A stretch of 64,000 bases of DNA from Parcubacteria group bacterium (GCA_041675165.1 JBAYUI010000002.1:376-64375); one strand, 5' to 3'; positions 7,342 to 47,401 are shown, counted from the stretch's first letter. Notes: generated by a model not told the origin, from the sequence alone. Translations and numbers: made by a program.

Positions 7342-7366
7342 TATATTTTTCTTAATCTAATTTTTT

Positions 7367-8866: not shown

Positions 8867-8885
8867 TTGGTTTTGAAAAGGGCTT

Positions 8886-19385: not shown

Positions 19386-19398
19386 AAAAAATATATTT

Positions 19399-19430
19399 AT
19401 AGAGGCTTCTACGGAGACCTCTATTTTGTT
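19399..19430 (+). terminator. Putative terminator after dxs
   Basis: tagagg...cctcta stem followed by ttttgtt. Confidence 0.4.
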
Positions 19431-19497
19431 ATCAGTAGGACTTGCATCTTTTTCACATAATGATATAATATCATTGAAATCATTTAAAACAAAAAAG

Positions 19498-20301: not shown

Positions 20302-20388
20302 AGATTAAAAAATATTACTTTTATTGCATTTTTGCCAATTTTTATTTAGTGGAGTATGCTGGAGGAGTTTAAAGTTGAGGAAAGGGGC

Positions 20389-20417
20389 TTGACGGTGCGG
20401 AGTTATTGATATATAAT
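20389..20417 (+). promoter_or_regulatory. Strong sigma70-type promoter upstream of the 493-aa nuclease-like ORF
   Basis: TTGACG, 17-nt spacer, TATAAT. Confidence 0.5.
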
Positions 20418-20547
20418 TTACGCATAAAAACAGAAACACAAAAGGAAAGAAGAAAAATTTACGATTTTTGTCCGACAGACTGAAAAAGGACCGAATCTTA
20501 AAATCAAATACGGGTGAGTTTGCTTTTAAAAAAGGAAATTAGAAAGT

Positions 20548-22029
20548 ATGCCGCGACAATGCGTAGTATATTTTCTGGTTTCCTTTTTTTGTGGCATTAT
20601 GGCAATTTTATTAAGTGAATATTTAGGAGTAGATGCAAAAACTTTAAAAAATAAAGGCGTGTTCGACATGGTTATAGGGATAGATACGAAACTCTTTATT
20701 GATCCTCTTTTATTCAAAAAATGTGGAATTGCAGAATTTGTAGATTCCCGAAAAAAAATAATATTATATTTTAAAAAAGTTGTATCTCTTATAAAATATT
20801 TTTCAAACGATAGGGCACGTGAAGCTGCCATTCAATTGCTTACCTTTCCGGAACCTAAGGGCGTATCAATTGGTTATGGTTCAGACAATGATGATGGAAA
20901 TGCGATTGGACCAAAACTTGCAAAGCGACTAGCTGAATCTGGTCGAGAGATTTACGAAATGGGGATAGAAGATCCAGAAATATTTGAATTATTAGGATTA
21001 TTTGAAGAAGATTTTGGTCCTGACAGACTAAGTGATATGATAATAAATATAGTGTTATCTGATTTTTTTCGATATACTGAAAGAATTTGCGATGAACTTA
21101 AAATTAAACATACTTATGAATTTTTCCATGAGGATCATGAATTTTATTTGCCTCAACATCCCGATAAGCATGGATATTTGATATTTATTCCTGAGAAATT
21201 TCTTAGAAATTTGCCCGTAGCTTCTTCATGGGAGGAGGTGTGCGAATCCGCTCGATTTAATCAGGAATTGAGGAATCGTTTGAACAAGATGATGGCGGGT
21301 GTATTTAAAGGAAGCCATAGTAAAACAACAAAAAAACAATTAAGAGAGATTATTTTTAATAATAAAAATAATGTAAAGGAGCTTCTGGATGTGTATAAGG
21401 AGCTTGATCCGAGTGCATATGATTTTTTAGCTGATGTCCAGGGACACGGATTGTGGTATCAGAAGGGGAAAGAGATATTCGAAAAATATTATGAGTCTGA
21501 AAAATGCGAGAAACCAAAAAACATATGCGACCTTGATTCGTTTGTAGTGCGCATGATCAATCAATATAAGAGGGCAATTGAGGAAGTGGGCGCGAATAAA
21601 ATTTTATACTCTTTTAAAAAAGACAAATTTCATCCACATCGAGAGGAAATTGCTCAGCTTGTATTCTTGATTGTTGCAGATCTGAATTGCCAAAAGCAAG
21701 GAGTGTTTCTCGCCAGAGAATCAAATTATGGGCATGGCCCAGTAGATTTCTCCTTGGGGATAGGATATGATGAAAAAATTTTGGTGGAAATTAAAAAAAG
21801 TTCTAACCCTAATCTAATAAAGGGTTATATGGCACAACTTCCTGATTATGAAAAAAGTGAACATTCTGCAAAAAGTTATTTCGTAGTTTTGATTGTTGAT
21901 GAAAATAAAGAAAAAATCAAAAGACTTCTATCTAAAAAAACAGAGGCTAATAAAGAAGGGAAGAAATCCCCTGATATTATACTTATAGATGCAACAATTA
22001 AACCGTCTCCTAGTAAGCTAAGAACTTAA
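20548..22029 (+). CDS. Large hypothetical protein with a C-terminal PD-(D/E)xK nuclease-like motif
   Basis: 493 aa, very AT-rich. C-terminal GHGPVDFSLGIGYDEKILVEIKKS fits a D...E-x-K restriction-endonuclease-like core. The N-terminal ~350 aa match no family. Start uncertain. Confidence 0.55.
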   Translation: MPRQCVVYFLVSFFCGIMAILLSEYLGVDAKTLKNKGVFDMVIGIDTKLFIDPLLFKKCGIAEFVDSRKKIILYFKKVVSLIKYFSNDRAREAAIQLLTFPEPKGVSIGYGSDNDDGNAIGPKLAKRLAESGREIYEMGIEDPEIFELLGLFEEDFGPDRLSDMIINIVLSDFFRYTERICDELKIKHTYEFFHEDHEFYLPQHPDKHGYLIFIPEKFLRNLPVASSWEEVCESARFNQELRNRLNKMMAGVFKGSHSKTTKKQLREIIFNNKNNVKELLDVYKELDPSAYDFLADVQGHGLWYQKGKEIFEKYYESEKCEKPKNICDLDSFVVRMINQYKRAIEEVGANKILYSFKKDKFHPHREEIAQLVFLIVADLNCQKQGVFLARESNYGHGPVDFSLGIGYDEKILVEIKKSSNPNLIKGYMAQLPDYEKSEHSAKSYFVVLIVDENKEKIKRLLSKKTEANKEGKKSPDIILIDATIKPSPSKLRT

Positions 22030-31185: not shown

Positions 31186-32229
31186 ATGATATTTAAAGAT
31201 ATGATTTCTAACGGGGTAAAAATTCAATTGAGTCATAGTTTTGAAAAAATAATTAGTGTTGAAAATTTACTCGAAGCTTGGAAAGAATTTGCGAGAGGCA
31301 AAAAAGACAGAAAAGATGTGCAGGCATTTTCCATGCGATTGATGGATAACATTTTTATACTGCATGAAGAACTTTCTAATCATACCTATAAACACGGCGG
31401 GTATCAAGCGTTCAAGATCAATGATCCCAAACCCAGAGATATTCATAAAGCCAGCGTGAGAGACCGATTGGTGCATCACGCCATTTACAGAGCTCTGTAT
31501 CCGTTTTTCGACAAAACTTTTATCGCAGATTCATACTCTTGCCGGAATGATAAAGGTACACACAAAGCCATTGATAAATTCCGCAGCTATTTCCCCAAAG
31601 TCAGCCAGAATAATACCCGGACTTGCTGGATTCTGAAATGTGACATCCGTAAATTTTTTGCCAATATTGATCATCAAATTTTACTCAACATCTTGGCTGA
31701 ATACATTCCGGATAAAAATATCATTAGTCTCTTGGAAAATATCATTGAAAGTTTCCACGCTGGCTTACCCTTAGGCAATCTCACTTCGCAATTGTTCGTG
31801 AATATCTATATGAACAGGTTTGACCAGTTTGTGAAGCACAAACTAAAAGCTAAATATTATATCCGTTATGCGGATGACTTTGTTTTCTTGTCTGAAAGTA
31901 AAAAGTATTTGGAAGAAATTATTTTAGTCACCAGAGAATTTTTAAAAGAAAAATTGAAACTGGAAATGCATCCAGATAAGGTTTCCATTCAAACGCTATC
32001 ATCCGGCGTAGATTTTCTGGGGATGGTTAACTTTTTTGATTATCGAATACTCAGAACAAATACAAAGAGAAGAATACTGAAAAAACTAGCCCTGAAACAG
32101 AAAATGTGTCAGGAGGGATTGGTTTCCAAGGAATCACTTGAGCAAAGCGTGCAATCATATTTAGGAGTGTTGAGGCATTGTGAAGGGTATTGGGTGGCGA
32201 GAGAGATAGAAAGGATGATATGCGGTTGA
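31186..32229 (+). CDS. Diversity-generating retroelement reverse transcriptase
   Basis: RT motifs PRDIHKASVRDRLVHHAI, ILKCDIRKFFANIDH, LPLGNLTSQLFVNIY (the DGR-specific GxxxSQ) and YIRYADDFVF (YxDD). Confidence 0.9.
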   Translation: MIFKDMISNGVKIQLSHSFEKIISVENLLEAWKEFARGKKDRKDVQAFSMRLMDNIFILHEELSNHTYKHGGYQAFKINDPKPRDIHKASVRDRLVHHAIYRALYPFFDKTFIADSYSCRNDKGTHKAIDKFRSYFPKVSQNNTRTCWILKCDIRKFFANIDHQILLNILAEYIPDKNIISLLENIIESFHAGLPLGNLTSQLFVNIYMNRFDQFVKHKLKAKYYIRYADDFVFLSESKKYLEEIILVTREFLKEKLKLEMHPDKVSIQTLSSGVDFLGMVNFFDYRILRTNTKRRILKKLALKQKMCQEGLVSKESLEQSVQSYLGVLRHCEGYWVAREIERMICG

Positions 32230-32359: not shown

Positions 32360-33838
32360 TCAGATCATCCCTTCTCTTTTCATGAACTTCCGGATGTGGG
32401 CTTTGGCGTTGGAAGTCTTGACGAAGCGCAGCCAGTCGCGGCTGGGGTTTTTGTGATCTTTGGAAGTGAGGATCTCAATGATTTCTCCGTTTTGAACTTT
32501 GTAATCCAAAGTGACGATGTGGCCGTTGACCTTGGCACCGACCGCGCGGTCACCGATTTCGCTGTGGACGCGGTAGGCAAAATCGATCGGAGTGGCTTCT
32601 TCGGGCAGATCGATGATGTCGCCCATCGGAGTGAAGGCAAAGATATGATTTTTGAAAAAATCGATCTTCAGGCTCTCCATAAATTCGTGGTCGTCTTTGC
32701 CCAATTCATTCTGCCATTCCCGAAGCTGTTTCACCCAGATCAATTCCTGATCGGGCACTTTGGTCTTCCTGCCGAAAAGGAGATCTTTGAGACTGCGCTT
32801 ATTTTCCGAATAGATCCAGTGCGCGGCAATTCCGAATTCCGCTTCGTCATCCATTTTTTTGGTGCGGATCTGGACTTCGAGGAATTTTCCTTCCGGTCCG
32901 AAAATCGTGGTGTGGATAGATTGATAACCATTGGGCTTGGGGAGCGAGATATAATCTTTGATGCGGCCGACCAGCGGGCGGTATTTTTTGTGAACGATGC
33001 CGAGGGTTTCATAACAGTTGACGATTTCCGGCACGATTATCCTCACTCCGACCAGATCATAAATCTTGGCGATATCCATATCGTGCCGTTTCAATTTTTG
33101 GAAAAGGCGATAGATGTGTTTGGATCGTCCGAAAATGTCCACGAACCGGATGCCCTCTCGGCCCAGTTCTTTTTTCAGTTCAGCCACGACTTTTTTGATG
33201 TATTTCTTCCTTTTTTCCTGTTGCGCCGCCGACAGATTGGCCACGTAAGTATAATTTTCCGGATCAAGATAGCGGAAAGCCAAATCTTCCAAGCGCGCCT
33301 TAATATCTCCGATGCCGAGGCGGTTCGCGATGGGCGCATAAATTTCCAAAGTTTCACGGGCGATGCGTTCTTGCTTTTCCGGCGGCAGGCTTTCTAAAGT
33401 TTCCATATTATGCAAACGGTCGGCCAATTTGATGAGCACTACTCGGATATCGGCGGCCATCGCCAAAAACATCTTCCTAAGATTCTCCAGATAGTTTTCC
33501 TCTTTAGTGCCGCGCAGCTTTATCTTTCCCAACTTGGTAACGCCGTCCACCAATGTGGCGATCTCTTTGCCGAATTTTTTTTCGATCTCTTCCAAAGTGA
33601 CGGCTGTGTCTTCGGGCACATCATGCAGCAGTCCGGCCGTAATCGTTCTGGCACCGAGCCCGATCCTCGCCAAATTCAAGGCCGTATGCAACGGATGTTG
33701 GATATAGTCTTCGCCAGATTTCCTTTTCTGGGCGGTGTGCGCGCCCAAAGCCAATTCATAAGCGCTTCTGATCATTGCTTCATTCTTGGCGCTCATCTTC
33801 AGTTTTATATTTTTGATTACTTCTTCAATAGTGACCAT
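32360..33838 (-). CDS. rel: Bifunctional (p)ppGpp synthetase/hydrolase, RelA/SpoT family (short form)
   Basis: HD domain (LLHDVPEDT), synthetase domain (YISLPKPNGYQSIHTT), TGS domain. 492 aa. Confidence 0.9.
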   Translation of the reverse strand: MVTIEEVIKNIKLKMSAKNEAMIRSAYELALGAHTAQKRKSGEDYIQHPLHTALNLARIGLGARTITAGLLHDVPEDTAVTLEEIEKKFGKEIATLVDGVTKLGKIKLRGTKEENYLENLRKMFLAMAADIRVVLIKLADRLHNMETLESLPPEKQERIARETLEIYAPIANRLGIGDIKARLEDLAFRYLDPENYTYVANLSAAQQEKRKKYIKKVVAELKKELGREGIRFVDIFGRSKHIYRLFQKLKRHDMDIAKIYDLVGVRIIVPEIVNCYETLGIVHKKYRPLVGRIKDYISLPKPNGYQSIHTTIFGPEGKFLEVQIRTKKMDDEAEFGIAAHWIYSENKRSLKDLLFGRKTKVPDQELIWVKQLREWQNELGKDDHEFMESLKIDFFKNHIFAFTPMGDIIDLPEEATPIDFAYRVHSEIGDRAVGAKVNGHIVTLDYKVQNGEIIEILTSKDHKNPSRDWLRFVKTSNAKAHIRKFMKREGMI

Positions 33839-33884: not shown

Positions 33885-36131
33885 TCAAGCTGGATTTTCT
33901 TTTTCAAATTTGCATTCCTTGGAGGAGCAGCGGACCTTGTTTTTGGCGGCAAAAACAAGGAGGCTCTGGCACAAAGGGCATTTTTCACCAGTGGGCTTGT
34001 TCCAGAGGGCGAAATCGCATTTCGGATAAGAATTGCATCCGAAAAAAATCCGTCCCCGCTTGGATTTTCGCTCAACGATGTCTCCCGCGTCGCAGCGGGG
34101 ACACTTGATGCCGGTCTTATTCTCGATCTTCTTAATACCTTTGCATTCCGGATAATTCGAGCAACCGAGGAAGGCGCCGAAACGTCCCCTCTTGACCACC
34201 ATCGGTGCTCCGCAAATCTCGCAAATTTCATGGCTGTTTTCCGCGTCGATCTTTTTCTCCGTTTCTGTCTTTTCGGTATATTTGCATTCGGGATAGTTCG
34301 TGCAGGCGATGAATTTTCCGAAGCGGCCGAATTTCATGATCAGATCACCGCCGCAGTCGGGACAATTCCGGCCAAGTTTTTCTTGGAAATCTTCCTTACT
34401 GACTTTTTTGGTCTTAGCAAGCAGATTTTTATGGAAGGGTTCGTAAAAATTGCGGATGATCGGCACCCATTCGCTTCGGCCGTCGGCAATCTTGTCGAAT
34501 TCTTCTTCGATGTTGGCGGTGAATTTTATGTCTACGATATCCGTGAAGTGAGCAACGAGCAGGTCGCTGACCAGCGTGCCGATTTCCAGCGGGAAAAGCC
34601 GGCGTTCTTCGTTCTTTTCCACATATTTCCGTTCAATGATGGTCGTAATCGTGGGCGCGTATGTCGATGGCCTGCCGATGCCGTTCTCTTCCATCACTTT
34701 GATCAAGGTCGCTTCGCTGTAGCGGGGCGGTTGAGTGGTTGATTTCGCCGTGGCCGTGGCACTGATCAGGTCGAGCGGGTCATTTTTTTCCAAAGCCGGC
34801 AGAATATTTTCTGTGATTGCCTGGTCGCTGTAGACTTTCAGATAACCTTCGAAAAGCAAGGTCGATCCATTGGCCCGTAGGAGATAGATATTTTTCTCCG
34901 CTTTAGCTTCGATGTCCATTTTGACGGAATCGAATTTGGCCGGTTGCATCTGGCTGGCGATCATCCGGTTCCAGATGAGGCGGTATATCTTGTATTGGCT
35001 CGGTTCGAGCGAGCTTTCGAGCTCGGCGGGCGTTTTTTCCGGATAAGCCGGCCGGATAGCTTCGTGCGCTTCTTGGGCGTTCTTCGATTTTGTCTTATAG
35101 AAACGCGGAGTTGGCAAAGCATATTCTTTTCCGAAAAGTTTGGTGATGGTCTTTTGTGCCGAGAGCATCGATTCCATCGAAAGATTGGTGGAGTCGGTCC
35201 TCATATAGGTGATGAGGCCTTGCTCATAAAGTTTCTGCGCGGCCATCATCGTCTGCTTGGAAGAAAAACCCAAACTGTTGATGGCGCCTTGTTGCAAGGT
35301 CGAAGTGGTGAATGGGGCCGGCGGCGTGCGGAGCGTTTCTTTTTTGACGATATCTACGATCTGACAAACGGATGATTGCAGTTCGGCCACGATCGTATCA
35401 GCCATTTTTTGGGTGGTGATGTTGGTTTTTTTCGTTTTGTAATCCCCAGCAAAAAGTTTGAGCGTGATGGACTCGTCGATTTTTTCGCCATTTTTTTGCA
35501 ATAAACTGGCATTAAAAGAAGCCCTACTCCCTCCGTTCTTGGCCTGAAATTTTCCATCGATCACCCAAAATTTTTCCGCTTTGAACTTTTCAATCTCTTT
35601 TTCACGTTCAACAATCAGCCGCAAGGCGACTGATTGGACGCGGCCGGCTGAGAGCCCCCGCCTGATTTTTTTCCACAGGAAAGGCGAGAGTTCGAAACCG
35701 ACCAATCTATCCAAGATTCTGCGGGCTTGTTGCGCGTCAACCAGATTCAGATCGATGGCGCGCGGATTGTCCAGGGCTTTTTCGATGGCACTCTTGGTGA
35801 TCTCGTGGAATACGATCCGCTTGGTCGTTTTCGGATCGAGATTGAGCGCGCTCGAAAGATGCCAAGCGATGGCCTCTCCTTCGCGGTCTTCGTCGGAGGC
35901 GAGGATGATTTCGTCGGCTTTTTCGGCCAATGTTTTCAAGTTATCCACGCGTTCGATGGCTTTGGTCGGGATGACATAATCCGGCTGGAAATCATTTTCG
36001 ATATCGATACCCATCTTTTTTTCCGGCAAATCGCGGATATGGCCGTAGGAAGATTTGACGGTATATTTCTTGCCGAGGAATTTGGCAATAGTCTTGGCTT
36101 TAGTGGGAGACTCTACTATAACGAGCTTCAT
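33885..36131 (-). CDS. topA: DNA topoisomerase I
   Basis: Toprim N-terminus MKLVIVESPTKAKTIAKFLG...GHIRDLP, the active-site Tyr region, multiple C-terminal Cys4 zinc ribbons. 748 aa. Confidence 0.95.
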   Translation of the reverse strand: MKLVIVESPTKAKTIAKFLGKKYTVKSSYGHIRDLPEKKMGIDIENDFQPDYVIPTKAIERVDNLKTLAEKADEIILASDEDREGEAIAWHLSSALNLDPKTTKRIVFHEITKSAIEKALDNPRAIDLNLVDAQQARRILDRLVGFELSPFLWKKIRRGLSAGRVQSVALRLIVEREKEIEKFKAEKFWVIDGKFQAKNGGSRASFNASLLQKNGEKIDESITLKLFAGDYKTKKTNITTQKMADTIVAELQSSVCQIVDIVKKETLRTPPAPFTTSTLQQGAINSLGFSSKQTMMAAQKLYEQGLITYMRTDSTNLSMESMLSAQKTITKLFGKEYALPTPRFYKTKSKNAQEAHEAIRPAYPEKTPAELESSLEPSQYKIYRLIWNRMIASQMQPAKFDSVKMDIEAKAEKNIYLLRANGSTLLFEGYLKVYSDQAITENILPALEKNDPLDLISATATAKSTTQPPRYSEATLIKVMEENGIGRPSTYAPTITTIIERKYVEKNEERRLFPLEIGTLVSDLLVAHFTDIVDIKFTANIEEEFDKIADGRSEWVPIIRNFYEPFHKNLLAKTKKVSKEDFQEKLGRNCPDCGGDLIMKFGRFGKFIACTNYPECKYTEKTETEKKIDAENSHEICEICGAPMVVKRGRFGAFLGCSNYPECKGIKKIENKTGIKCPRCDAGDIVERKSKRGRIFFGCNSYPKCDFALWNKPTGEKCPLCQSLLVFAAKNKVRCSSKECKFEKENPA

Positions 36132-36169: not shown

Positions 36170-36310
36170 ATTTTTTATCAATCAAATTTAGATAATAAAT
36201 CCAAAATCCAAATATCAAATGTCAAATAAAATCCCAAGCTCTAAATTCAAAATTTTGACATTTGAACTTTGAAATTTATTGGAAATTTGGATTTTGACAT
36301 TTGGATTTTA
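36170..36310. repeat. Long intergenic hairpin made of simple repeats (aaatccaaaat... / ...atttggatttt)
   Basis: aaatccaaaatccaaatatcaaatgtcaaa...tttgacatttgaactttgaaatttattggaaatttggattttgacatttggatttta. Confidence 0.6.
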
Positions 36311-37426
36311 CAATAGTATATAGTTCTGTCCGCCGATATTTTTCACCCAGCCTTTCAGTTCCATCATGGAGAGCGTAGCGGCGACAGAGGCAGTTTGAAG
36401 TTTAGCGAGTTTCGAAATATTGTCAATGTGGAGCGGTTCGGAAGAAAGGATCCTGAGAAGAATTTCTTCCTCTTTACCGGTCGGCACTTTCGGTGCGGAA
36501 ATCTTTTGACGACCATTCTTTTCTAGGCCTAATTCTTCAAGGATATCCTTGACTCCCGTGACGACTTTGGCGCCGCTGCGGATGAGACTATTGGTGCCGA
36601 TAGAACTCTCTGAAAAGATGGAACCCGGCACGGCAAAAACTTCCCGATTGGATTCCAAAGCCATTTGCGCCGTGATGAGGGCACCACTTTTTTCACCGGC
36701 TTCAATCACGACCGTTCCGAGGGTAAGGCCGGCCACGATGCGGTTACGTGCCGGAAAAGTCAGTGGGCCGGCGGCAGTTTCAGTCGGATATTCGCCAAAG
36801 AGCGCTCCTGATCCCATAATTTCATGCGCGAGATTAATATTGTGTCGGGGATAGATATTTTTTTCATCTAGACTATTGCCCAGAACAGCTATTGTTTTTC
36901 CGTTTCCATCCAGCGCTCCGCGGTGCGCCCAGCTATCAATGCCCAAAGCCATTCCGCTGATTACCGTCACGCCTGCCGCGGCCAAGTCTTTGGACAGATT
37001 TTGCGCGGCCATCGCGCCATAGGGCGTGTTTTTTCTGGCACCAACAATGGCGATCGCCGGAGAGCCGACCAATTCCAGAAAAGCAACTTCGTCAAAAGGT
37101 AGGGAAGTTTTTATATATAATATATATGGAGGATGGAGCGCTTCTTTGAGAAGGGCCGGATAGAGCGGATCGCTCCACTCGATGAGCCGGATGTTTTCTT
37201 TCTCCATAATCTCCATTTCCTGATCCGGATCGGTGTTTTTCCTTTCGTCAAATATCCGTCCCGCCAGATTCTCTCCGATGCCGCTCCTTATGAGCAGTTC
37301 CAAATCGGCGCCCCAAGCGGTTTCAGCGCTGCCGAAGAAGCTGACGAGCTTCCTTAATCTTTGCGCGCCCACCCCAGAAATTTTATTGAGGGCGTTCAGA
37401 TATTTGAGGTCTTTGGAGTTTGCCAT
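36308..37426 (-). CDS. dprA: DNA processing protein DprA/Smf
   Basis: Rossmann-like DprA core (GMALGIDSWAHRGAL, VIEAGEKSGALITA). 372 aa. Confidence 0.88.
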   Translation of the reverse strand: MANSKDLKYLNALNKISGVGAQRLRKLVSFFGSAETAWGADLELLIRSGIGENLAGRIFDERKNTDPDQEMEIMEKENIRLIEWSDPLYPALLKEALHPPYILYIKTSLPFDEVAFLELVGSPAIAIVGARKNTPYGAMAAQNLSKDLAAAGVTVISGMALGIDSWAHRGALDGNGKTIAVLGNSLDEKNIYPRHNINLAHEIMGSGALFGEYPTETAAGPLTFPARNRIVAGLTLGTVVIEAGEKSGALITAQMALESNREVFAVPGSIFSESSIGTNSLIRSGAKVVTGVKDILEELGLEKNGRQKISAPKVPTGKEEEILLRILSSEPLHIDNISKLAKLQTASVAATLSMMELKGWVKNIGGQNYILL

Positions 37427-37520
37427 ATTTTTTTAAATGTAGCATAATATGTGACCTCTTGACAAATTTTTGATATATGCTAGAATAGTGTGAAATTTAA
37501 AAGTTATTAAATAAACATAT

Positions 37521-38597
37521 ATGAGCAACGAGCACAAGAGCAAAAATAACAAGGAAACGGGCAGAGCTAAGGCTTCTACGGAAGGTTTCAGCTTTTTGCT
37601 TTTGGCTGAAAAATTATTGGCCGATCTGACGCCGCGTTCCAGAGAAATAATCCGCCGCCGCTTCGGGCTAGTGGGCGATCAGAGTGAAACCTTGGAAAAA
37701 ATCGGTCAACGATATGAGATAACCAGAGAAAGAGTGCGGCAGATCATTACCGAGGCGGTGAAAAATATCTCGCAACGATCCGGTCATGAAGATTTTTTGA
37801 GTGCTGAAGAGAAAATTGTTTTTACAATAATCCAAAACGGAGGTATAATTAGGGAAGTTGATGCTATTGAAAAAATAGAACTCAGTTCTGATCAAGAAGC
37901 CAACGCGGTCAAGTTTTTTGTCAGTTGTTCCAAGAATATTTTTGAAGTTGAAGAGAAAGGACTCTTGGAAAAAGCGTGGGTCGTTTCTTTGGACATCATT
38001 GAGGGGATCAAACGATTGATTGTCGAAGCGGAGAAAAACGCCCTGAAGGACAAGGAACTGTTGGCCGATGAAGAGATGCTCGGCAAATTGGCCGCTTTGA
38101 TACCGGACATTCCAAAAGAGCAGATAATGAATTTTTTGTCAGTGTCCGAGCGCGTAAAGAAGAATAAGTTCGGCAAATGGGGCATCATCGATTGGATGGA
38201 AGTTTCTCCCAAAGGTACGCGGGAAAAGGTCTACCTGATCCTTAAAGAGCACAAAAAGCCGTTACACTTCACCGAGATTGCCGGTTTGATCGATAAATAT
38301 GAATTGAGCAAGCGCGGAGCCCATCCTCAAACGGTGCATAATGAATTGATCAAGGACGAACGTTTCGTTTTGGTCGGCCGAGGGATCTATGCCCTCTCGG
38401 AATGGGGATATTTTTCTGGCACGATCAGGGATATCATTGAAGTGATCCTGAAAGCTTCTGGTCGCGCGATGAAGAAAGAAGAAGTCATCGCTGAAGTGTT
38501 GAAAATGAGAAAAGTGAAGAAGACGACCATCATGATTAACCTGAACAATCGCAAATTTTTCAAAAAAGAAGGAGAATTTTATAAGCTGAAAAAATAA
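37521..38597 (+). CDS. Protein with an N-terminal sigma-70 region-4-type HTH. The remaining ~290 aa are unassigned
   Basis: LTPRSREIIRRRFGLVGDQSETLEKIGQRYEITRERVRQIITEAVKNI matches sigma region 4 (LxxRExxVLxxRFGL...TLEEIG...TRERIRQIE). Confidence 0.6.
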   Translation: MSNEHKSKNNKETGRAKASTEGFSFLLLAEKLLADLTPRSREIIRRRFGLVGDQSETLEKIGQRYEITRERVRQIITEAVKNISQRSGHEDFLSAEEKIVFTIIQNGGIIREVDAIEKIELSSDQEANAVKFFVSCSKNIFEVEEKGLLEKAWVVSLDIIEGIKRLIVEAEKNALKDKELLADEEMLGKLAALIPDIPKEQIMNFLSVSERVKKNKFGKWGIIDWMEVSPKGTREKVYLILKEHKKPLHFTEIAGLIDKYELSKRGAHPQTVHNELIKDERFVLVGRGIYALSEWGYFSGTIRDIIEVILKASGRAMKKEEVIAEVLKMRKVKKTTIMINLNNRKFFKKEGEFYKLKK

Positions 38598-38629
38598 AAA
38601 TTTAAGAAAACGCAAAAACTATAAATGTT

Positions 38630-39898
38630 ATGAACAACGTTTCAGACATTGGTTCTGCTTTGGGAGTCGTAGGACAAACTTTCGGAATATTCTGGTGGGC
38701 TCTTCTGCCGCCGCTTTTTTATACGGTTTTCAAATTTCTTTGGATCGACTTCGTGGCTTTTTACGCGCCCAATTCTTGGCATGCCGGCCAGCAGTGGACA
38801 TATTTGGAAATTTTTCCGCCGCGCGAAATCGAACGTGGACCCAAAACTATGGAAAGTATCTTTACGGCTATGACAGGGGTTCTCACGACTTTTAATACTT
38901 TCAATGAATATTTAGAAGGGGCTTTTTGGCATGACCGTTTTAGCGTGGAGCTGGTCGGAAAAGAGGGTCAGATGCATTTCTATATCCGGACTCAGAAAAA
39001 ATATCGTACCTTGATCGAATCGCATATCTACGCGCAATATCCGGATGCCAAAGTTTTGGAAGTGGCGGATTATACGGAAAATTTTCCCAAGATCGTGCCG
39101 AATAAGTTTTGGGATCTGTGGGGGACGGACTTTGAATTTGTCGCGAAAAATGCCATCCCGATCAAGACTTATGAAAAATTCGAAGAAAGCGTGACGGGCG
39201 AGATGATTGATCCGATTTCAGCTTTGGCGGAAGTGATGGGGTCATTGGGTCCCAATCAACACATTTGGCTGCAATATGTCTTGCAACCCTTGCCGGAACC
39301 GGAAAGGAACAGTGATGAACATAAGAATGTGATTAAAAAGTTGAAAGGCGAGCCGGTAGTGGAACCGATGAGTTTTTTCGGCCATCTGATGGATGTCATT
39401 GCCAACATTCCCGCTGCGTTTTCCGGCCCAGTAGCATTCGGGGCGGCGGATAAAAAAGATTTGGCACCTTTGGAATTCCGCCTTTCTCCTGTTGAGAAAG
39501 ACCTCTTGAAAGCGACGGAGGAGAACTTGGGCAAGAATCTTTTCAAGACAAAGATGCGGATGTTGTATATCGGACGCAAAGAAAATTATGATAAATCTAA
39601 TATCTCCTCTTTCATTGGAGCAATCAAACAATTCAATGATATCAATTTCAATCAAGTGAAGCCGGAAGATATCAGTAAGACGTATGGTACTTTCTTTTGG
39701 GCGAAGCAACGTTTGGAATTCAGGAAAAGAAAGATTTATAACCGTTACAAAAAAAGGAATATGGACGGGAACAATATGATTTTTTCCGTCAAAGAATTGG
39801 CTACTGTTTTTCATTTTCCGGATATGGGCGTGAAAGCGCCGTCCATCACGCGTACGGAATCGAAATTGGGCAGTGCTCCATCTAATTTGCCTATATAA
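38630..39898 (+). CDS. Membrane-anchored hypothetical protein (partner of the downstream ATPase)
   Basis: 422 aa, N-terminal TM segment(s), no family recognised. 10-nt gap to the next gene. Confidence 0.5.
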   Translation: MNNVSDIGSALGVVGQTFGIFWWALLPPLFYTVFKFLWIDFVAFYAPNSWHAGQQWTYLEIFPPREIERGPKTMESIFTAMTGVLTTFNTFNEYLEGAFWHDRFSVELVGKEGQMHFYIRTQKKYRTLIESHIYAQYPDAKVLEVADYTENFPKIVPNKFWDLWGTDFEFVAKNAIPIKTYEKFEESVTGEMIDPISALAEVMGSLGPNQHIWLQYVLQPLPEPERNSDEHKNVIKKLKGEPVVEPMSFFGHLMDVIANIPAAFSGPVAFGAADKKDLAPLEFRLSPVEKDLLKATEENLGKNLFKTKMRMLYIGRKENYDKSNISSFIGAIKQFNDINFNQVKPEDISKTYGTFFWAKQRLEFRKRKIYNRYKKRNMDGNNMIFSVKELATVFHFPDMGVKAPSITRTESKLGSAPSNLPI

Positions 39899-39907
39899 AA
39901 TAAAAAA

Positions 39908-41881
39908 ATGTCCGAAATCAATTTTTTTGCTAAAACTAATTTCAGAAATAAAGAAGTGGCTTTTGGCATCAAGGAAGATGACCGGCGCCGGCATATGTAT
40001 GTCATCGGGAAGACGGGTATGGGGAAATCCAATATGCTGGAAAATATGGCTATCCAAGACATTCGCGATGGCCATGGCGTATGCTATGTCGATCCGCACG
40101 GCGAAGGAGCGGAAAAGATGCTCCGAGCCGTACCGGCCAATCGTATCAATGATGTGGTCTATTTCAATCCATCCGACAAGGAATTTCCCATCGCTTTCAA
40201 TATCTTGGAATCGGTGGATGAAGATAAGAAAAACTTGGTGGCCAGCGGTATGATGGGAGTTTTCAAGAAGATCTGGCCGGACGTGTGGAGTCCGCGGATG
40301 GAATATATCCTCAATAACACCATTCTGGCGCTTTTGGACTATCCCGGCTCGACGATGCTCGGCGTGAACCGGATGATGAGTGACAAGGATTTCAGGAAGC
40401 GGGTCTATCCGAAGATCAAAGATCCGGTCGTGAAATCTTTCTGGATCAATGAGTTCGACCAATGGGATGACAAGTTCAGAAAAGAAGCGGTGGCGGCCAT
40501 CCAGAACAAAGTCGGACAATTTTTGTCATCTTTCGTCATCCGGCATATCGTGGGCCAGCCCAAATCGACCATCGATATGCGCGAGATTATGGATAATCAA
40601 AAAATTCTGATTGTCAATCTTTCCAAGGGTAAGATCGGTGAAGACGCAATGCGGCTTCTCGGCGGAATGATCGTGACCAAGATCCAGTTGGCCGCGATGG
40701 GACGGGTAGAGATTTCGGAAGCGGAGCGCAAAGACTTTTTTCTGTATGTGGATGAATTCCAGAATTTCGCGACTGAATCATTCGCCAATATATTATCCGA
40801 AGCGAGAAAATATCGTTTGTGCCTCATCTTGGCCCATCAATATATCAACCAGTTGATTTTCGACGGTAATGCCACGGTGCGTGATGCCATCTTCGGCAAT
40901 GTCGGCACGCTCGTATCTTTTCGCGTGGGAGCGGAAGACGCGGAGCATCTGGAAAAAGAATTCGAGCCGGTCTTTATGCAAAACGATATTGTGAACTTGG
41001 CCAAATATCAGATGTATCTCAAACTGATGATCGATGGTATTGCGGGGGATGCTTTTTCGGCCACTTCTTTGCCGCCCGTAGACCTGTCCGATACGCTAGG
41101 CAATGAGGAAAAGGTGATCAAGATTTCTCGCGAACGATATGGCAAATCTCGGGCGGAAGTTGAAGAACGGATCGCGCGTTGGAGCGGGATGTTTGATTTT
41201 TCTGAATTTGAAAAAGAAACACCGCTCAAAAAAAATTATTCGGACGCGGCTAGGCTCACGGTCAGACCGGGGGCGGGCATCATCAGGGAAAATGCTGCCG
41301 GTGCGGCGAATGCCAAGGGAAGAACGAACGGGAACAATCTTTCCAACAATAGATACGATCCGGCTAGAGCGGTGAAGGAAAATCTGTCTCAGGGTGAATA
41401 TGTTGCTAAAGTTCCGACTCCGAGCGATAAAAAGTCTGTCCCTGTTGCACCGGCTCCCATTGCGCCTGTTTCCACCTCGTCGTCTTCTCCGGCACCTGTC
41501 GCTGAGCGAAAGATGTTTGAAGCGGTTTGCAGCAGTTGTGAAGAACATATCCAAGTGCCGTTCGCCCCTGATCCGAAACGCCCGACATTTTGCAGAGAAT
41601 GTTTGAAGGAATATCAAAGGGCAAGAGCGCGGTCGCAATATGATAGGGCGGATCAGAACCAACTAGCCGTTAAAGAAAGACCGGACTATGATGGTAAAAG
41701 TAATAAAGAGGATGAACCCAGAGATGGCTCTCTGCCGGTCGCAATAGTGGCTAATGAAAAACCGATGCGACTCACTCAGATGGTGAATATGGCACCGAAA
41801 AAATTCCAAAGTGCGCGCCGAAGGCCGGAAGTGGATGTGGCCGGCGTGCGTGATCTCATCAATAAAACAAAAAATAATTGA
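39908..41881 (+). CDS. TraD/VirD4/FtsK-HerA-superfamily P-loop ATPase (T4CP-like) with a C-terminal zinc ribbon
   Basis: Walker A GKTGMGKSN, VDPHGE, Walker B FLYVDEFQNF, AHQYINQL. C-terminal CSSCEEHIQVPFAPDPKRPTFCRECL. Confidence 0.7.
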   Translation: MSEINFFAKTNFRNKEVAFGIKEDDRRRHMYVIGKTGMGKSNMLENMAIQDIRDGHGVCYVDPHGEGAEKMLRAVPANRINDVVYFNPSDKEFPIAFNILESVDEDKKNLVASGMMGVFKKIWPDVWSPRMEYILNNTILALLDYPGSTMLGVNRMMSDKDFRKRVYPKIKDPVVKSFWINEFDQWDDKFRKEAVAAIQNKVGQFLSSFVIRHIVGQPKSTIDMREIMDNQKILIVNLSKGKIGEDAMRLLGGMIVTKIQLAAMGRVEISEAERKDFFLYVDEFQNFATESFANILSEARKYRLCLILAHQYINQLIFDGNATVRDAIFGNVGTLVSFRVGAEDAEHLEKEFEPVFMQNDIVNLAKYQMYLKLMIDGIAGDAFSATSLPPVDLSDTLGNEEKVIKISRERYGKSRAEVEERIARWSGMFDFSEFEKETPLKKNYSDAARLTVRPGAGIIRENAAGAANAKGRTNGNNLSNNRYDPARAVKENLSQGEYVAKVPTPSDKKSVPVAPAPIAPVSTSSSSPAPVAERKMFEAVCSSCEEHIQVPFAPDPKRPTFCRECLKEYQRARARSQYDRADQNQLAVKERPDYDGKSNKEDEPRDGSLPVAIVANEKPMRLTQMVNMAPKKFQSARRRPEVDVAGVRDLINKTKNN

Positions 41882-41885
41882 AACA

Positions 41886-42074
41886 ATGATAAAATTCGAA
41901 CCTAATCGCAGGACGCTTAATTACTTGGCCTTGTTTATGTTGATATTTTTTAATGGCGTGCTGTTCGGTGTTTTGGCGTATGTCGGACGGAACGTGGTCA
42001 ATAATACGAAAGAGTCGCAAGTTCTGGAAGTTTCTCAGGATGTTCGCAACGAAATGGCGGGGCAAAAAAGGTAG
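41886..42074 (+). CDS. Small hydrophobic protein (hypothetical)
   Basis: 62-aa ORF with one TM helix. Weak. Confidence 0.25.
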   Translation: MIKFEPNRRTLNYLALFMLIFFNGVLFGVLAYVGRNVVNNTKESQVLEVSQDVRNEMAGQKR

Positions 42075-42152
42075 GTTGATAAGCGGGCTTGAAAATATTG
42101 TTTAAGCCTTTTTTATTTGCCTATTGTATCAAACTTTGATACCTTTTTACTT

Positions 42153-43962: not shown

Positions 43963-45804
43963 ATGCCTATGACTGCCAATGAACTCCGTCAACAATATTT
44001 GGAATTTTTCAAAAGCAAGGGACACGCCATCATCCCCAGCGCGCCGGTGGTGCCGGAAAATGATCCGACCACGCTTTTCATCACGGCCGGGATGCATCCT
44101 TTGGTGCCATACTTAATGGGGGAAAATCATCCGCAAGGTATGCGCTTGGCCAATGCGCAAAAATCCATCCGTACGATCGACATTGACGAAGTGGGCGACC
44201 GCACTCACCACACTTTTTTCGAGATGCTGGGCAATTGGTCTCTCGGCGACTATTTCAAAAAAGAAGCCCTAACGTGGAGCTGGGAATTTCTGACTTCGCC
44301 GGACTGGCTCGGGCTGGACAAAAATCGTTTGGCTTGTTCGGTGTTCGAGGGGGACACGGATGCGCCGTTCGATGAGGAAGCTTTCAATATTTGGAAAAAT
44401 TTGGGTATGCCGGTTGCGCGCATCGCCAAGTTGCCGAAGAAGAATAATTGGTGGGGACCGGCCGGGACGACCGGGCCGTGCGGACCGGACAGTGAAATGT
44501 TCTATTGGATCGGCGACCCCAAAAAAGTGCCGGACAGCTTCAATGATGATAATGACAATTGGGTGGAGATCTGGAATGATGTTTTCATGCAATACAACAA
44601 AAAAGCGGATGGTACGTTTGAAAAATTGGCGCAACAGAATGTCGACACGGGGATGGGACTGATGCGGGTGCTCACCGCCATAAACGGTCTCGATGACAAT
44701 TATCGCACGGAACTTTTCTGGCCGCTCATCCAAAAAATTGAAGAATTGTCGGGAAAGAAATATGATGAAGTAGGGGTTATGAGGCCGATGCGTATTATTG
44801 CTGACCATATCAAGGCAGCTGTGTTCATTATGGCTGATGGCGTGAAGCCAGGAAATTCTGAGAGAAGTTATATTCTCAGGCGCCTTATTCGTCGAGCGGT
44901 GCGTCAAGGACATATCTTGGGCATCAAAGAAAATTTCACGGTTTCAATTGCTAAAGTGGTGCAAGAAATTTATGGAGCAGTTTACGGGGAAATTTTAGAT
45001 GATAATATTATGAATATTTTAGAAAATGAGGAGGATAAGTTTAAAAAGACTGTTGTAAAAGGCCTGGGAGAATTGTTTAAACTAGTCGGGATTGAAAATC
45101 AATTTGCTCAAGGGAAAATTGAAGACATGAAAATCAATATAGAAGATATCAATGGTAGGGAATTATTTAATCTATATCAGACATACGGACTCCCTATAGA
45201 GCTAAGTATTGAAGAAATAAATCACCAAATGTTGTCTGAATCAAGAAAGATTGACGAAGAAACGGAAAAAAAGTGGTTAGCTGGTTTTAAAAATGAATTG
45301 CAAAAACACCAAGAACTTTCTCGTACCGCTTCAGCCGGAATGTTCAAGGGCGGCTTGGCTGATACGAAGGAAGAAACGACGGCCTTGCACACGGCGGCGC
45401 ATCTGATGTTGGCGGGACTGCGGAAAGTTTTGGGCAGCCATGTGCATCAGAAAGGTTCGAACATCAACGGCGAAAGGTTGCGTTTTGATTTTTCCCATGC
45501 GGAAAAAATGACGGATGAACAGAAAAAATTGGTGGAAGATTATGTCAATGAAGCTATCACGGCCAAAATGCCGGTGGAAATGACTGAAATGACACTGGAC
45601 GAAGCGCGCGCCGCGGGAGCGGAAGGTGCGTTCGAGAATAAATATGGCGAGGTGGTGAAGGTCTATAAGATCGAAGGTTTCTCTTCGGAAATCTGCGGCG
45701 GTCCACACGTGGCCAACACCGGCGATATCCATGGCACGTTCAAGATTAAAAAAGAAGAAAGTTCTTCAGCTGGCGTAAGAAGGATTAAGGCAGTGATTGC
45801 ATAA
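43963..45804 (+). CDS. alaS: Alanyl-tRNA synthetase, short form (catalytic and editing domains, no C-Ala domain)
   Basis: N-terminal FFKSKGH...PSAP, HHTFFEMLGNWSLGDYFK. Editing-domain HxxxH (HTAAHLMLAGLRKVLGSH). 613 aa. Confidence 0.9.
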   Translation: MPMTANELRQQYLEFFKSKGHAIIPSAPVVPENDPTTLFITAGMHPLVPYLMGENHPQGMRLANAQKSIRTIDIDEVGDRTHHTFFEMLGNWSLGDYFKKEALTWSWEFLTSPDWLGLDKNRLACSVFEGDTDAPFDEEAFNIWKNLGMPVARIAKLPKKNNWWGPAGTTGPCGPDSEMFYWIGDPKKVPDSFNDDNDNWVEIWNDVFMQYNKKADGTFEKLAQQNVDTGMGLMRVLTAINGLDDNYRTELFWPLIQKIEELSGKKYDEVGVMRPMRIIADHIKAAVFIMADGVKPGNSERSYILRRLIRRAVRQGHILGIKENFTVSIAKVVQEIYGAVYGEILDDNIMNILENEEDKFKKTVVKGLGELFKLVGIENQFAQGKIEDMKINIEDINGRELFNLYQTYGLPIELSIEEINHQMLSESRKIDEETEKKWLAGFKNELQKHQELSRTASAGMFKGGLADTKEETTALHTAAHLMLAGLRKVLGSHVHQKGSNINGERLRFDFSHAEKMTDEQKKLVEDYVNEAITAKMPVEMTEMTLDEARAAGAEGAFENKYGEVVKVYKIEGFSSEICGGPHVANTGDIHGTFKIKKEESSSAGVRRIKAVIA

Positions 45805-45808
45805 AATT

Positions 45809-47401
45809 ATGAATCTTGAACCAAAACTTGAAAACATTGCTATTGCAAACAAAAAAGAGAGTGGGAATGAACAATCCATAGGGAATTCCAATAGGGAAGA
45901 CAATCAAACCGAAGAACTGCATTCAGAAGAATTACAGCAGGAAAATTTGCAAAGAGATCATGATGTGCTTAAGAGAGAGCTTTTTCAAAAATACGGACAA
46001 GCTTTTTGGGATCTTGGTGACAAGAAAAAATTCCCTCTTGAAATAAATGAGAAAGTGAGAAGCGTGATCACTGATCCGAAAGATTGGGCAACTTATTTTA
46101 GATTTGCCCAAGCCGCTTATGTAACAAGAAGTGGTGCAAAATATGAAAAACCGCAAGGTCATCCTAATATCATGCATCCGTCAGAAAAGACTATTGAAAA
46201 AATAGAAGTGAATATTGCTGATTCGTCCACGCGCGAAAAATATATAGAAAATTGGCCGTATAAAGATTTTTCCCTTGATGAATGGGAAGAAAATGGTTTT
46301 TTGATTACCAAGGAAGGATTGCCTTCGAAACTTGAACGTGAATATTATGAACTGGTTAGAACAGGAGATTTCAAAAAATGGTTTGGCGATTGGGAAGATC
46401 ATTCAGATGATCAAGAAGTGAGTAAAATGATTGATCCTGATACCAAAGAACCTAAAGTTTTTTATCGCGGAGATAAATCTCGTTTCAAGCCAGGTTTTAT
46501 AGTTTTGGATGACGACGGTCGAACACCTGATATTGATAAATTAAAATTAGATGAAGAGGGTAATCCCGTCCTTGGCGAGGGCAATCCTATTCTTGGTATA
46601 GAAAGAGAAAAAGCTCTTTCAAGAAGACAAGGGGTGTTTTTTACTAATAACAAAAAAGTAGCATTGGATTATGGGGTTGATATCGACGCCAATACATTAG
46701 GGAAGACCGGTCTTGAATCAGAAAGAGATCATCCGGAAACATTTCCAAAAATGAAAGATTGGCTCGAATCTTTTGCTAACTCTTCTCCAAATTTTTGGAA
46801 AAATATTACACAGTACATATTAGACTACAGTCCTGAAATAGAAGCGGATGATTATAGGCATCGTTTTCATGTTATGTGTTACGACATGCGCATAATGGGA
46901 AAGAACGAAGATGATTTATGGGATGAAGTTACTAATCAGAGGAGACATGAAAAACCCAGCTACTATATAGATATATTTATCAAATCAGGAAATTTTGAGC
47001 GATTGATAGATGGATTTAATTCATATGTAAAGGATGAATCTGATAATTCATTTAAAAAAAGTTTAAAATCTAACGAGTGGCATAAGCCGGAATGGATGTT
47101 GCAGTTTAGGAAATTGCGATTGGATTATTTGACGGAACCATTAGTTCTTTCAACTGTTTTTATCCGATCTAAAAATCCTAGAATAGAAAGAAGAATTGAT
47201 GTGACTGAAAATTCAGATGTGCATTGGGCGCGAAAAGATGGACATGATTCATTTATTAACAAAGAAGGAGTCGGAGGAATAAAGGAGGCAGATGAAATAG
47301 TAATGTTTGATTTGAAAAATATTTGGGTTGCAAAAAAAGAACATCTGGATTACTCGGATGTGGAAAGAGTTGATAAGGTGAATGGAATTACAAGACTTTA
47401 A
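45809..47401 (+). CDS. Large hypothetical protein (AT-rich, unassigned)
   Basis: ~530 aa. An alternative ATG at 45797 overlaps the alaS stop. No family recognised. Composition differs from the flanking tRNA synthetase genes. Confidence 0.5.
   Translation: MNLEPKLENIAIANKKESGNEQSIGNSNREDNQTEELHSEELQQENLQRDHDVLKRELFQKYGQAFWDLGDKKKFPLEINEKVRSVITDPKDWATYFRFAQAAYVTRSGAKYEKPQGHPNIMHPSEKTIEKIEVNIADSSTREKYIENWPYKDFSLDEWEENGFLITKEGLPSKLEREYYELVRTGDFKKWFGDWEDHSDDQEVSKMIDPDTKEPKVFYRGDKSRFKPGFIVLDDDGRTPDIDKLKLDEEGNPVLGEGNPILGIEREKALSRRQGVFFTNNKKVALDYGVDIDANTLGKTGLESERDHPETFPKMKDWLESFANSSPNFWKNITQYILDYSPEIEADDYRHRFHVMCYDMRIMGKNEDDLWDEVTNQRRHEKPSYYIDIFIKSGNFERLIDGFNSYVKDESDNSFKKSLKSNEWHKPEWMLQFRKLRLDYLTEPLVLSTVFIRSKNPRIERRIDVTENSDVHWARKDGHDSFINKEGVGGIKEADEIVMFDLKNIWVAKKEHLDYSDVERVDKVNGITRL

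Follow-up and report, generated by a model that had tools for sequence, protein, structure and literature searches.

Does a gene for the DNA-processing protein DprA, lying back to back with genes for a sigma-like protein, a membrane protein and an ATPase, mark a system for DNA uptake? The question is raised by positions 36308–41881 of a 64,000-nucleotide stretch of DNA from a Parcubacteria group bacterium (GCA_041675165.1, JBAYUI010000002.1:376–64375), the whole of which was analysed and is referred to as the window. A preliminary description of the window had proposed that dprA and the three co-oriented genes beside it together form a DNA-import or transfer module. The conserved unit, as reported below, consists of the three co-oriented genes and is not a quartet with dprA, and its second and third genes very probably encode the two halves of a plasmid-type type IV coupling protein (T4CP). 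All four open reading frames (ORFs) were found where they had been placed, with the domains named for them; the features of the locus are as follows.

37459–37486, plus strand: promoter-like site, TTGACA, 16-nt spacer, TAGAAT, with TG extension (consensus match only)
37521–38597, plus strand: gene 1, protein of 358 aa with sigma-70 region 4 and HARE-HTH domains (Pfam)
38630–39898, plus strand: gene 2, DUF8128 (PF26449) protein of 422 aa (precomputed annotation)
39908–41881, plus strand: gene 3, T4CP-type P-loop ATPase of 657 aa (Pfam, NCBIfam)
41886–42074, plus strand: small ORF of 62 aa, tentative fourth gene (position, weak conservation)
42085–42117, plus strand: terminator-like hairpin and T run (consensus match only)
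36308–37426, minus strand: dprA, 372 aa, a neighbour outside the module (TIGR00732, Pfam)
33885–36131, minus strand: topA (translation)
32360–33838, minus strand: relA/spoT-like gene (translation)

The conserved operon and its proteins

Relatives were sampled by searching the genomes of GTDB species, one for each, with an ATPase alignment; the best 80 loci, with 51–87% identity, were kept, and the order of the genes was read by tblastn with the window proteins as queries. Genes 1, 2 and 3 follow one another on one strand, with gene 1 directly upstream of the DUF8128 gene, in 77 of these 80 species-level loci; in the remaining three, the contig ends just upstream and the trio is truncated there. 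The trio is also kept in all of four more distant Parcubacteria contigs, which served as a further comparison set and in which the products of genes 1 and 2 share 32–36% identity with those of the window and the flanks are new (secDF and rpiB-rpe, or genes for a penicillin-binding protein and a Mur ligase). No family other than those of the trio is found in more than 44 of the 80 loci. The upstream neighbour varies by clade (dprA-topA in 20 loci, dnaB-recR in 10, mltG in nine, followed by pheST, a dnaX block and others), whereas downstream mnmA follows in 38 loci and various genes (rpiB and others) in the rest. Since the arrangement is kept in 77 of 80 relatives while its flanks change, it is far beyond chance, and the constant order within variable flanks identifies the trio as the unit under selection and dprA as a lineage-local neighbour.

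The assignment of dprA follows from a TIGR00732 score of 229 bits (cut-off 191) and from the Pfam domains DNA_processg_A (1.7e-67) and DprA_WH; 94 nt separate it from gene 1. Among the 59 loci which have at least 3 kb of sequence upstream of gene 1, to which the synteny count was restricted, dprA is present in 21, divergently adjacent to the trio in 19, and absent from 38, and none of the four distant contigs contains it. In all 21 loci it lies on the opposite strand next to topA (with an inserted ORF or two in two of them), and relA follows beyond topA wherever the locus extends that far. The gene is not part of the module but groups with topA and the relA/spoT-like gene on the minus strand. 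The inclusion of dprA in the preliminary description thus has to be given up: synteny with it is absent from most relatives, in which the trio alone is kept.

We take region 37521–41881, perhaps extending to 42074, for a single operon which is chromosomal and inherited vertically in Parcubacteria (Moranbacteria and relatives). Genes 1 and 2 are separated by 32 nt and genes 2 and 3 by 9 nt (median over the loci about 56 nt); the close spacing of the last two genes had been noted before, with a gap of 10 nt. The promoter-like site, with 11 of 12 consensus matches the best in the scanned region, lies 35 nt upstream of gene 1, and the hairpin (42085–42109), a 9-bp stem followed by TTTTTATTTG, is located between the small ORF and mnmA; both are consensus matches only, and the region shows no excess of terminator-like sites. 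Short gaps, promoter-like site and hairpin would be compatible with a single transcription unit. The 62-aa ORF starts 4 nt after the stop codon of the ATPase gene, ends 11 nt before the hairpin, and codes for one strong hydrophobic segment (aa 10–35). Its conservation is clear only in the two closest relatives (66–77% identity), with weak positional matches in several other loci, so that it may, tentatively, be regarded as a fourth, membrane-embedded component of the operon.

The window is part of the chromosome of a Parcubacteria/Moranbacteria bacterium, and its ATPase shares 100% identity with a protein in a metagenome-assembled genome of a “Parcubacteria group bacterium”. It is rich in housekeeping genes (ATP synthase, LeuRS, DXS, ParB, RelA/SpoT-like, TopA, MnmA, AlaRS, TyrRS, FtsA, RpoA), of which TopA, MnmA, AlaRS and the RelA/SpoT-like gene were recognized from their translations without a profile scan; an Rfam search of the window returned tRNAs only. 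Conservation of the motor domain of the ATPase (aa 1–430) is very high, with a median identity of 85% and a minimum of 67% over the 80 species representatives and 62–65% in the distant contigs; the median exceeds the values for TopA, RelA or AlaRS in the same loci. For the 13 loci in which all eight genes compared are present, the whole ATPase is 69.5% identical, as compared to 77% for RelA, 67% for TopA, 63% for DprA, 55% for MnmA and 53% for AlaRS. This conservation profile is that of a core, vertically inherited function, unlike that of a mobile element or a defence island.

The gene 3 product matches the Pfam families TrwB_AAD_bind (2.9e-10, aa 23–346), TraG-D_C (5e-6) and T4SS-DNA_transf (3.2e-5), all above their cut-offs, and also DUF87; matches to the NCBIfam families SXT_TraD (6e-12) and CD1115 (5.6e-9) are both far below the family cut-offs. 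T4CP families score 31–45 bits against 14–15 bits for VirB4 families, and the family profile, when compared with PDB sequences, matched DotL/IcmO and TrwB solely (E = 2e-5). Walker A comprises G34–S41 (nt 40007–40030) and Walker B Y280–E283 (nt 40745–40756), and the catalytic residues G34–K40 and D282–E283 are invariant across 45 orthologues. An AlphaFold2 model computed from 45 close orthologues consists of helices only at about aa 108–215; it is a low-confidence model (predicted local distance difference test, pLDDT, 54; predicted template modelling score 0.38), for which Foldseek ranks T4CPs first at template modelling scores <0.3, a weak corroboration. A disordered linker (aa 430–533) leads to the CxxC-x17-CxxC zinc ribbon (zf_Tbcl_2/TIGR04272; aa 534–568, nt 41507–41611; C541, C544, C562 and C565), a domain that binds zinc in small proteins of Methanosarcina (PMC12704099), and the ribbon is followed by a conserved basic tail (aa 619–657). 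The earlier assignment of coupling-type Walker motifs and a C-terminal ribbon is thereby borne out. There is no hydrophobic segment (maximum Kyte-Doolittle value 1.15), hence the protein has no N-terminal anchor of its own, and neither Pfam nor NCBIfam searches gave a match to FtsK_SpoIIIE or FtsK-gamma.

Outside the phylum, relatives of the ATPase are found in quite different surroundings. On a roseobacter plasmid (Sulfitobacter, NZ_CP081110.1, 7935–9122), a lone copy of 395 aa with 41.6% identity to the Parcubacteria motor has transposases as neighbours, and the subfamily is present in Bacillus jumbo and SPO1-like phages (phage G gp156, 28% identity, E = 8e-38). A Bradyrhizobium plasmid codes for a 708-aa relative among CHAT and TPR proteins; the N-terminal part of this relative does not resemble DUF8128.

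The product of gene 2 had no match in our local copies of Pfam and NCBIfam, the former of which lacks the PF26449 model; precomputed annotation assigns DUF8128 (PF26449) to an identical protein and to all 120 listed homologues. It contains a single N-terminal, aromatic-rich hydrophobic helix at about aa 7–46 (nt 38648–38767), with a Kyte-Doolittle value of 1.45 here and of up to 2.25 in orthologues, and its AlphaFold2 model (pLDDT 76) shows a long N-terminal helix (aa 4–45) preceding an alpha/beta domain. The protein is probably membrane-anchored; what the preliminary description had given as a membrane anchor is thus retained in this weaker form. Its C-terminal part carries the conserved motif ELATxFHFP...APxNLP. 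When the model was searched with Foldseek, 14 TrwK/VirB4 chains ranked first, and because DUF8128 has no P-loop, the match is assigned to the N-terminal domain of VirB4, the fold of which DUF8128 is predicted to share. The DUF8128 profile matched no PDB sequence, and no relative was found in IMG/VR viral contigs. Identity with TrsD of pGO1, a stand-alone protein resembling the N-terminal part of VirB4, was rejected as there is no sequence similarity. The split is stable: among 2586 DUF8128 representatives, the best 150 are without exception stand-alone proteins, with lengths of 243–588 aa; for the distant members, the cluster taxonomy is “Candidatus Parcubacteria”. No mention of DUF8128 was found in the literature searched.

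How the two proteins belong together became apparent from plasmids, among which a tblastn search with gene 3 yielded 558 records. The 885-aa protein WP_345805471.1 of the B. subtilis plasmid NZ_CP154917.1 (“DUF87 domain-containing protein”), first found as a weak match of DUF8128 to its N-terminal part, aligns in hhalign with DUF8128 at aa 48–327 (probability 97.4%, E = 1.3e-11) and with the gene 3 ATPase at aa 337–732 (probability 99.8%, E = 2e-27). Neighbouring genes code for conjugal transfer proteins, a replication-relaxation protein and, in the usual VirB4 position, another large “ATP-binding protein” (not domain-scanned). A second plasmid protein, the 812-aa T4CP WP_331738717.1 of Embleya (NZ_CP108778.1), is 32.5% identical to gene 3 in its ATPase half (tblastn, E = 3e-59), and SVPELAALAHLP, the motif at its junction, can be aligned with SVKELATVFHFP, which is conserved at the C-terminus of DUF8128 (E = 4.5e-4, probability 33%). 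The Embleya gene lies in a full monoderm-type conjugation cluster with genes for TrbL/VirB6, PrgI/VirB3, VirB4, a replication-relaxation (relaxase-like) protein and NlpC/P60. Because genes 2 and 3 align collinearly with one Bacillus plasmid protein, it is highly probable, judging from these alignments, that they correspond to a single-chain plasmid T4CP split into an anchor half and a soluble motor half. The idea of a membrane anchor paired with a coupling-type ATPase as a split translocase, already put forward in the preliminary description, is strengthened by this collinearity.

Gene 1 codes for a protein with Sigma70_r4 near its N-terminus, as previously recognized (aa 32–83, nt 37614–37769, Pfam 5e-14), and with a HARE-HTH domain (aa 238–295, nt 38232–38405, Pfam 3.6e-9) that is new to the present analysis. 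For region 4, the nearest PDB sequences are those of region 4.2 of RpoS/RpoD (E about 1e-10). Pfam gave no match to Sigma70_r2 or Sigma70_r3, and because regions 2 and 3 are absent, the protein cannot be a sigma factor; scores for all sigma equivalogs were far below the cut-offs. It was likewise rejected as the RNA polymerase delta subunit (RpoE) of Firmicutes, for which TIGR04567 scored 33 bits against a cut-off of 42; its HARE-HTH domain is near the C-terminus, and the acidic tail is absent from the sequence. Relatives outside the candidate phyla radiation (23–24% identity) are found in restriction-modification or Dnd phosphorothioation contexts. On a Pontibrevibacter plasmid (NZ_CP049815.1, 5549–8602), a gene 1 relative is contained in a larger protein and adjoins a Dnd phosphorothioation-dependent restriction module; on an Abditibacteriota plasmid (26–1732), again within a larger protein, it adjoins genes for an Eco57I-type methylase and DUF4007. 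The restriction-type contexts of these distant relatives suggest a portable DNA-binding module, and in the operon the gene 1 protein would act as a DNA adaptor or as an operon regulator.

Proposed role and competing explanations

Most likely, the trio acts as a hexameric, membrane-anchored translocase or coupling motor with a DNA-binding partner to guide it. Taken as a whole, the reading that we favour, and which we hold to be rather probable, is that of a split plasmid-type coupling protein, a membrane-anchored motor with a helix-turn-helix (HTH) partner, which brings a substrate to, or takes it from, a conduit whose genes lie outside the locus. DUF8128 would dock the ATPase hexamer on the cytoplasmic face of the membrane, as the VirB4 N-domain together with VirB3 anchors VirB4. 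The gene 1 protein, with two HTH modules of the nucleic-acid or RNA-polymerase type and no catalytic domain, would bind DNA and either present it to the motor or control the operon. Presentation could be modelled on plasmid F, in which TraM presents oriT DNA to the tail of TraD; here, the zinc ribbon and tail of the ATPase would make the contact. Powered by ATP hydrolysis, the motor would then move its substrate, a nucleic acid or nucleoprotein, towards or away from the envelope conduit, the most plausible candidate for which is the chromosomal monoderm-type type IV secretion system (T4SS) of most Patescibacteria, which has its own cluster without a coupling protein. Transport might be either export or Ced-like import, and the substrate might be DNA or protein.

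A bolder form of the favoured reading takes the trio for the missing motor that would serve coupling and translocation in the Patescibacterial envelope machinery independently of a relaxase, with gene 1 as DNA receptor and the split T4CP as a pump that passes DNA or nucleoprotein between host and ultrasmall cell, in a Ced/ComB-like import or a donor “push”; to this we attach a small chance. If true, a relaxase-independent motor would explain why a near-universal, ultra-conserved, conjugation-derived motor persists in a phylum almost devoid of relaxases. Patescibacteria are dependent on other cells, and the T4SS is essential in the sole species tested, S. epibionticum, the T4SS cluster of which lacks a recognizable coupling protein (Wang et al., PMC10633639).

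Several points weigh against the favoured reading. Within 10 kb of the trio, no T4SS, relaxase or channel gene was found in 83 related loci or in the window, and because of this the partner conduit is conjectural. Queries with VirB4, VirB6/TrbL, PrgI/VirB3, TrsD, TrsK and relaxases against the window and these 83 loci (1.46 Mb) returned nothing beyond the Walker A region of the ATPase, tblastn being weak on remote homologues, and the conserved neighbours of the trio include no relaxase or T4SS cluster. The anchor of gene 2 is a lone helix, of modest hydrophobicity in the protein of the window, and the AlphaFold2 model of gene 3 is so poor that little can be made of its structural matches. RNA polymerase, too, is bound by sigma region 4 and by the HARE-HTH of the delta subunit, so that gene 1 may be only a transcription factor. 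According to Quinonero-Coronel et al. (2025; PMC12102498), T4CP homologues are commoner in the phylum (96% of genomes) than VirB4 (2,417 genomes, 80%), and the T4CP homologue of S. epibionticum is described as not essential although the T4SS is; a non-essential homologue, if orthologous to the family of the window, fits strict coupling poorly. Finally, coupling proteins are not usually as strongly conserved as this motor, which may hint at a different, housekeeping role.

That role could be the one of an autonomous membrane DNA motor of the FtsK/SftA-like kind, serving segregation, dimer resolution or DNA anchoring, with gene 1 as an adaptor to a DNA site or to RNA polymerase. The motor is better conserved than the surrounding housekeeping genes, the operon is chromosomal, apparently single-copy and flanked by housekeeping genes, its neighbours often serve replication and recombination, the ATPase is a member of the FtsK-HerA superfamily, and the wide occurrence of T4CP homologues, exceeding that of VirB4 (PMC12102498), would suit such a function. 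Nevertheless, we consider it unlikely, as gene 3 has none of the FtsK matches searched for, its nearest relatives of known context are coupling proteins inside conjugation clusters, and the reported dispensability of the S. epibionticum homologue is not what a housekeeping motor would lead one to expect; the variant in which it replaces FtsK is weakened by the annotated ftsK of TM7x (PMC10768705).

The function originally suggested, a DNA-uptake module in which the split translocase pulls DNA in and hands single strands to DprA, accounts for the divergent position of dprA here and in 19 related genomes, and for the fact that other upstream neighbours are often genes of DNA metabolism (dnaB-recR, the dnaX block). 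It can point to CedD of the Sulfolobales, a VirD4-like ATPase for DNA import (PMC11823120), and to T4SS loci of the class ABY1, which contain comF, recG and radA (PMC12102498). However, dprA is missing from 38 of the 59 informative loci and from all four distant contigs, and where present it travels with topA (and relA) on the opposite strand. Transformation of S. epibionticum requires ComEC, and ComEC, ComF and DprA are the recognized uptake set of the phylum (PMC10633639); comEC, comF and pilus genes are not among the conserved neighbours in the related loci, and a scan that covered larger ORFs of the window revealed no pilus gene and, besides dprA, no com gene. Uptake in concert with DprA is therefore improbable. 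A role of the trio in DNA import is no more than possible.

A further alternative takes the pair of genes 2 and 3 for a secretion-system assembly ATPase, i.e., for a VirB4 protein divided like TrsD/TrsE of pGO1. The DUF8128 fold best matches the VirB4 N-domain, TrsD has been described as a remote homologue of the N-terminal part of VirB4 (PMC12102498), and on pGO1 the gene that immediately follows trsD, in the TrsE (VirB4) position, is annotated only as a DUF87 protein. We regard this as distinctly improbable in view of the higher scores of the ATPase for T4CP than for VirB4 families and the dissimilarity of DUF8128 to TrsD. No VirB4 chain appeared among the PDB sequence matches, although TrwK is in the PDB, and the hhalign alignment of gene 3 with TrsE is confined to the Walker A region; that with TrsK of pGO1 (a CD1115-type VirD4) is itself weak (E = 0.0037, probability 9%). 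Moreover, the Embleya cluster has a separate VirB4-type ATPase besides its T4CP, the Bacillus cluster has its second large ATP-binding protein, and the VirB4 match of DUF8128 may merely reflect the solved structures, none of those available for T4CPs including an N-domain of this type.

An anti-phage or conflict system built of a T4CP/HerA-like ATPase and a sigma-like DNA sensor is very improbable: PADLOC mad8 gave the top single profile score of the ATPase (66.7 bits), the sigma region 4 segment matches MzaA, the DndH C-domain is among the Foldseek matches of gene 3, and the distant relatives on plasmids have the Dnd, Eco57I-type methylase, CHAT and TPR neighbours described above, but the mad profiles were built from HHpred alignments against the PDB, which makes mad8 generic for the superfamily, no MADS component other than this one (of mad1–mad8) is matched, DUF8128 has no PADLOC match, no nuclease, methylase or effector gene is linked among the neighbours examined, and the trio, in fixed order and under very strong purifying selection, has housekeeping genes around it at all loci examined, quite unlike defence islands, which are patchy and evolve fast. 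Assignment of the ATPase to MADS was accordingly rejected, and the profile searches gave no meaningful assignment to an unrelated defence family of the kind named in the preliminary description.

Irrespective of its exact role, the trio offers a defined three-protein target for genetics, localization and pull-downs. DUF8128 gains a structural and evolutionary assignment, one orphan T4CP homologue is resolved as a probable two-gene split of a plasmid-type coupling protein, and a misleading link to dprA and competence is removed.

Other features of the window

Between parAB and the relA/spoT-like gene, a 347-aa reverse transcriptase is encoded at 31186–32229 on the plus strand (RVT_1 2.6e-25; PADLOC RT 182 bits). 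It was not found at the same position in related genomes, the GC content falls to 0.40, and no group II intron or retron RNA reached the Rfam gathering score in this region; it may be an insertion of a defence-type or orphan reverse transcriptase. In the stretch of lowest GC content of the window (0.348), the gene for a Bro-N domain protein (PADLOC PDC-S13, 361 bits) precedes that for a protein of 493 aa, which matches PDC-M36A weakly; the pair (19375–22029, plus strand) probably represents a small defence or mobile islet.

Region 3755–10448 (plus strand), downstream of a gene for an ATP synthase alpha/beta-family subunit, codes for Mrp/Nuo-like membrane subunits (Proton_antipo_M twice, NADHdh and Oxidored_q2) and for a fused NuoC/NuoD protein with a weak match to the [NiFe]-hydrogenase large subunit. 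It is a membrane module resembling group 4 hydrogenases or complex I. According to the usual descriptions, Parcubacteria have no respiratory chain. In the leucyl-tRNA synthetase (990 aa; 10605–13577, plus strand), an insert at aa 410–490 matches the aminoglycoside-2''-adenylyltransferase family PF10706 (1.1e-7). An ORF of 534 aa between alaS and tyrS (45797–47401, plus strand), the start of which overlaps the end of alaS, has no Pfam or PADLOC match, and its position is taken by different genes or by none in the relatives.

Comparison with known systems

That nearly all Patescibacteria have orphan T4CP homologues, to which no function is assigned, is known already from Quinonero-Coronel et al. 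(PMC12102498). According to them, VirD4-type homologues occur in 2,918 of 3,035 genomes, 148 of 5,713 homologues lie near virB4, relaxases are present in 103 genomes only, and the authors keep exaptation open. The gene 3 ATPase is of the same kind, from the same phylum, and as at the trio these homologues are rarely near virB4 and relaxases are rare. Apparently new are the division into two genes, the placing of DUF8128, the obligatory sigma region 4/HARE-HTH partner and the extreme conservation, for which nothing was found in the literature searched; the passages available from PMC12102498 likewise yielded nothing on these four points or on the zinc ribbon, and no description of the operon as such was found in the literature searched.

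TrwB of R388, DotL/IcmO of Legionella and Cag-beta of H. pylori are the best solved relatives of gene 3 by profile and Foldseek. They share Walker A and B with gene 3, have an all-alpha insert between the two motifs, as gene 3 would have by its low-confidence model, and are remote in sequence (13–15% identity). Classical T4CPs have two N-terminal transmembrane helices of their own and no VirB4-like N-domain, whereas the anchor of gene 3 resides on the separate DUF8128 protein. From VirB4/TrwK and TrsD, the pair differs in that DUF8128 shows no sequence similarity to TrsD and that its motor partner is of the T4CP type, not the VirB4 type.

CedD/TedD of the Crenarchaeota (PMC11823120; bioRxiv 10.1101/2024.09.27.615246) resemble gene 3 in being chromosomal VirD4-like ATPases encoded apart from their machinery; they have parts resembling the VirB4 N-domain, and some orthologues lack a transmembrane segment. 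CedD of the Sulfolobales is encoded apart from cedAB and is essential for DNA import (PMC11823120). The likeness to gene 3 is a functional analogy, not family membership, since the NCBIfam CedD profile matches gene 3 in the Walker A region only (29 bits, cut-off 600). With TraD and TraM of the F plasmid, in which an accessory DNA-binding protein is recognized by the C-terminal tail of the coupling ATPase, the comparison concerns the gene 1 protein; TraM and gene 1 are not homologous, and the contact with the ATPase tail proposed here is purely inferred from that model.

The closest counterparts are the plasmid T4CPs. Like the pair in the window, the Bacillus protein has a DUF8128-homologous N-domain followed by the same ATPase subfamily in the same order; in the Embleya protein, homology extends over the ATPase half, and of its N-terminal part only the junction motif EL(A)xxxH(L/F)P aligns. 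The plasmid proteins are single polypeptides, plasmid-borne and encoded beside relaxase-like and T4SS genes, whereas the version in the window is divided between two genes, chromosomal and vertically inherited, with no relaxase or T4SS gene found nearby; it has in addition the zinc ribbon and the conserved tail, and is always preceded by the gene for the sigma region 4/HARE-HTH protein.

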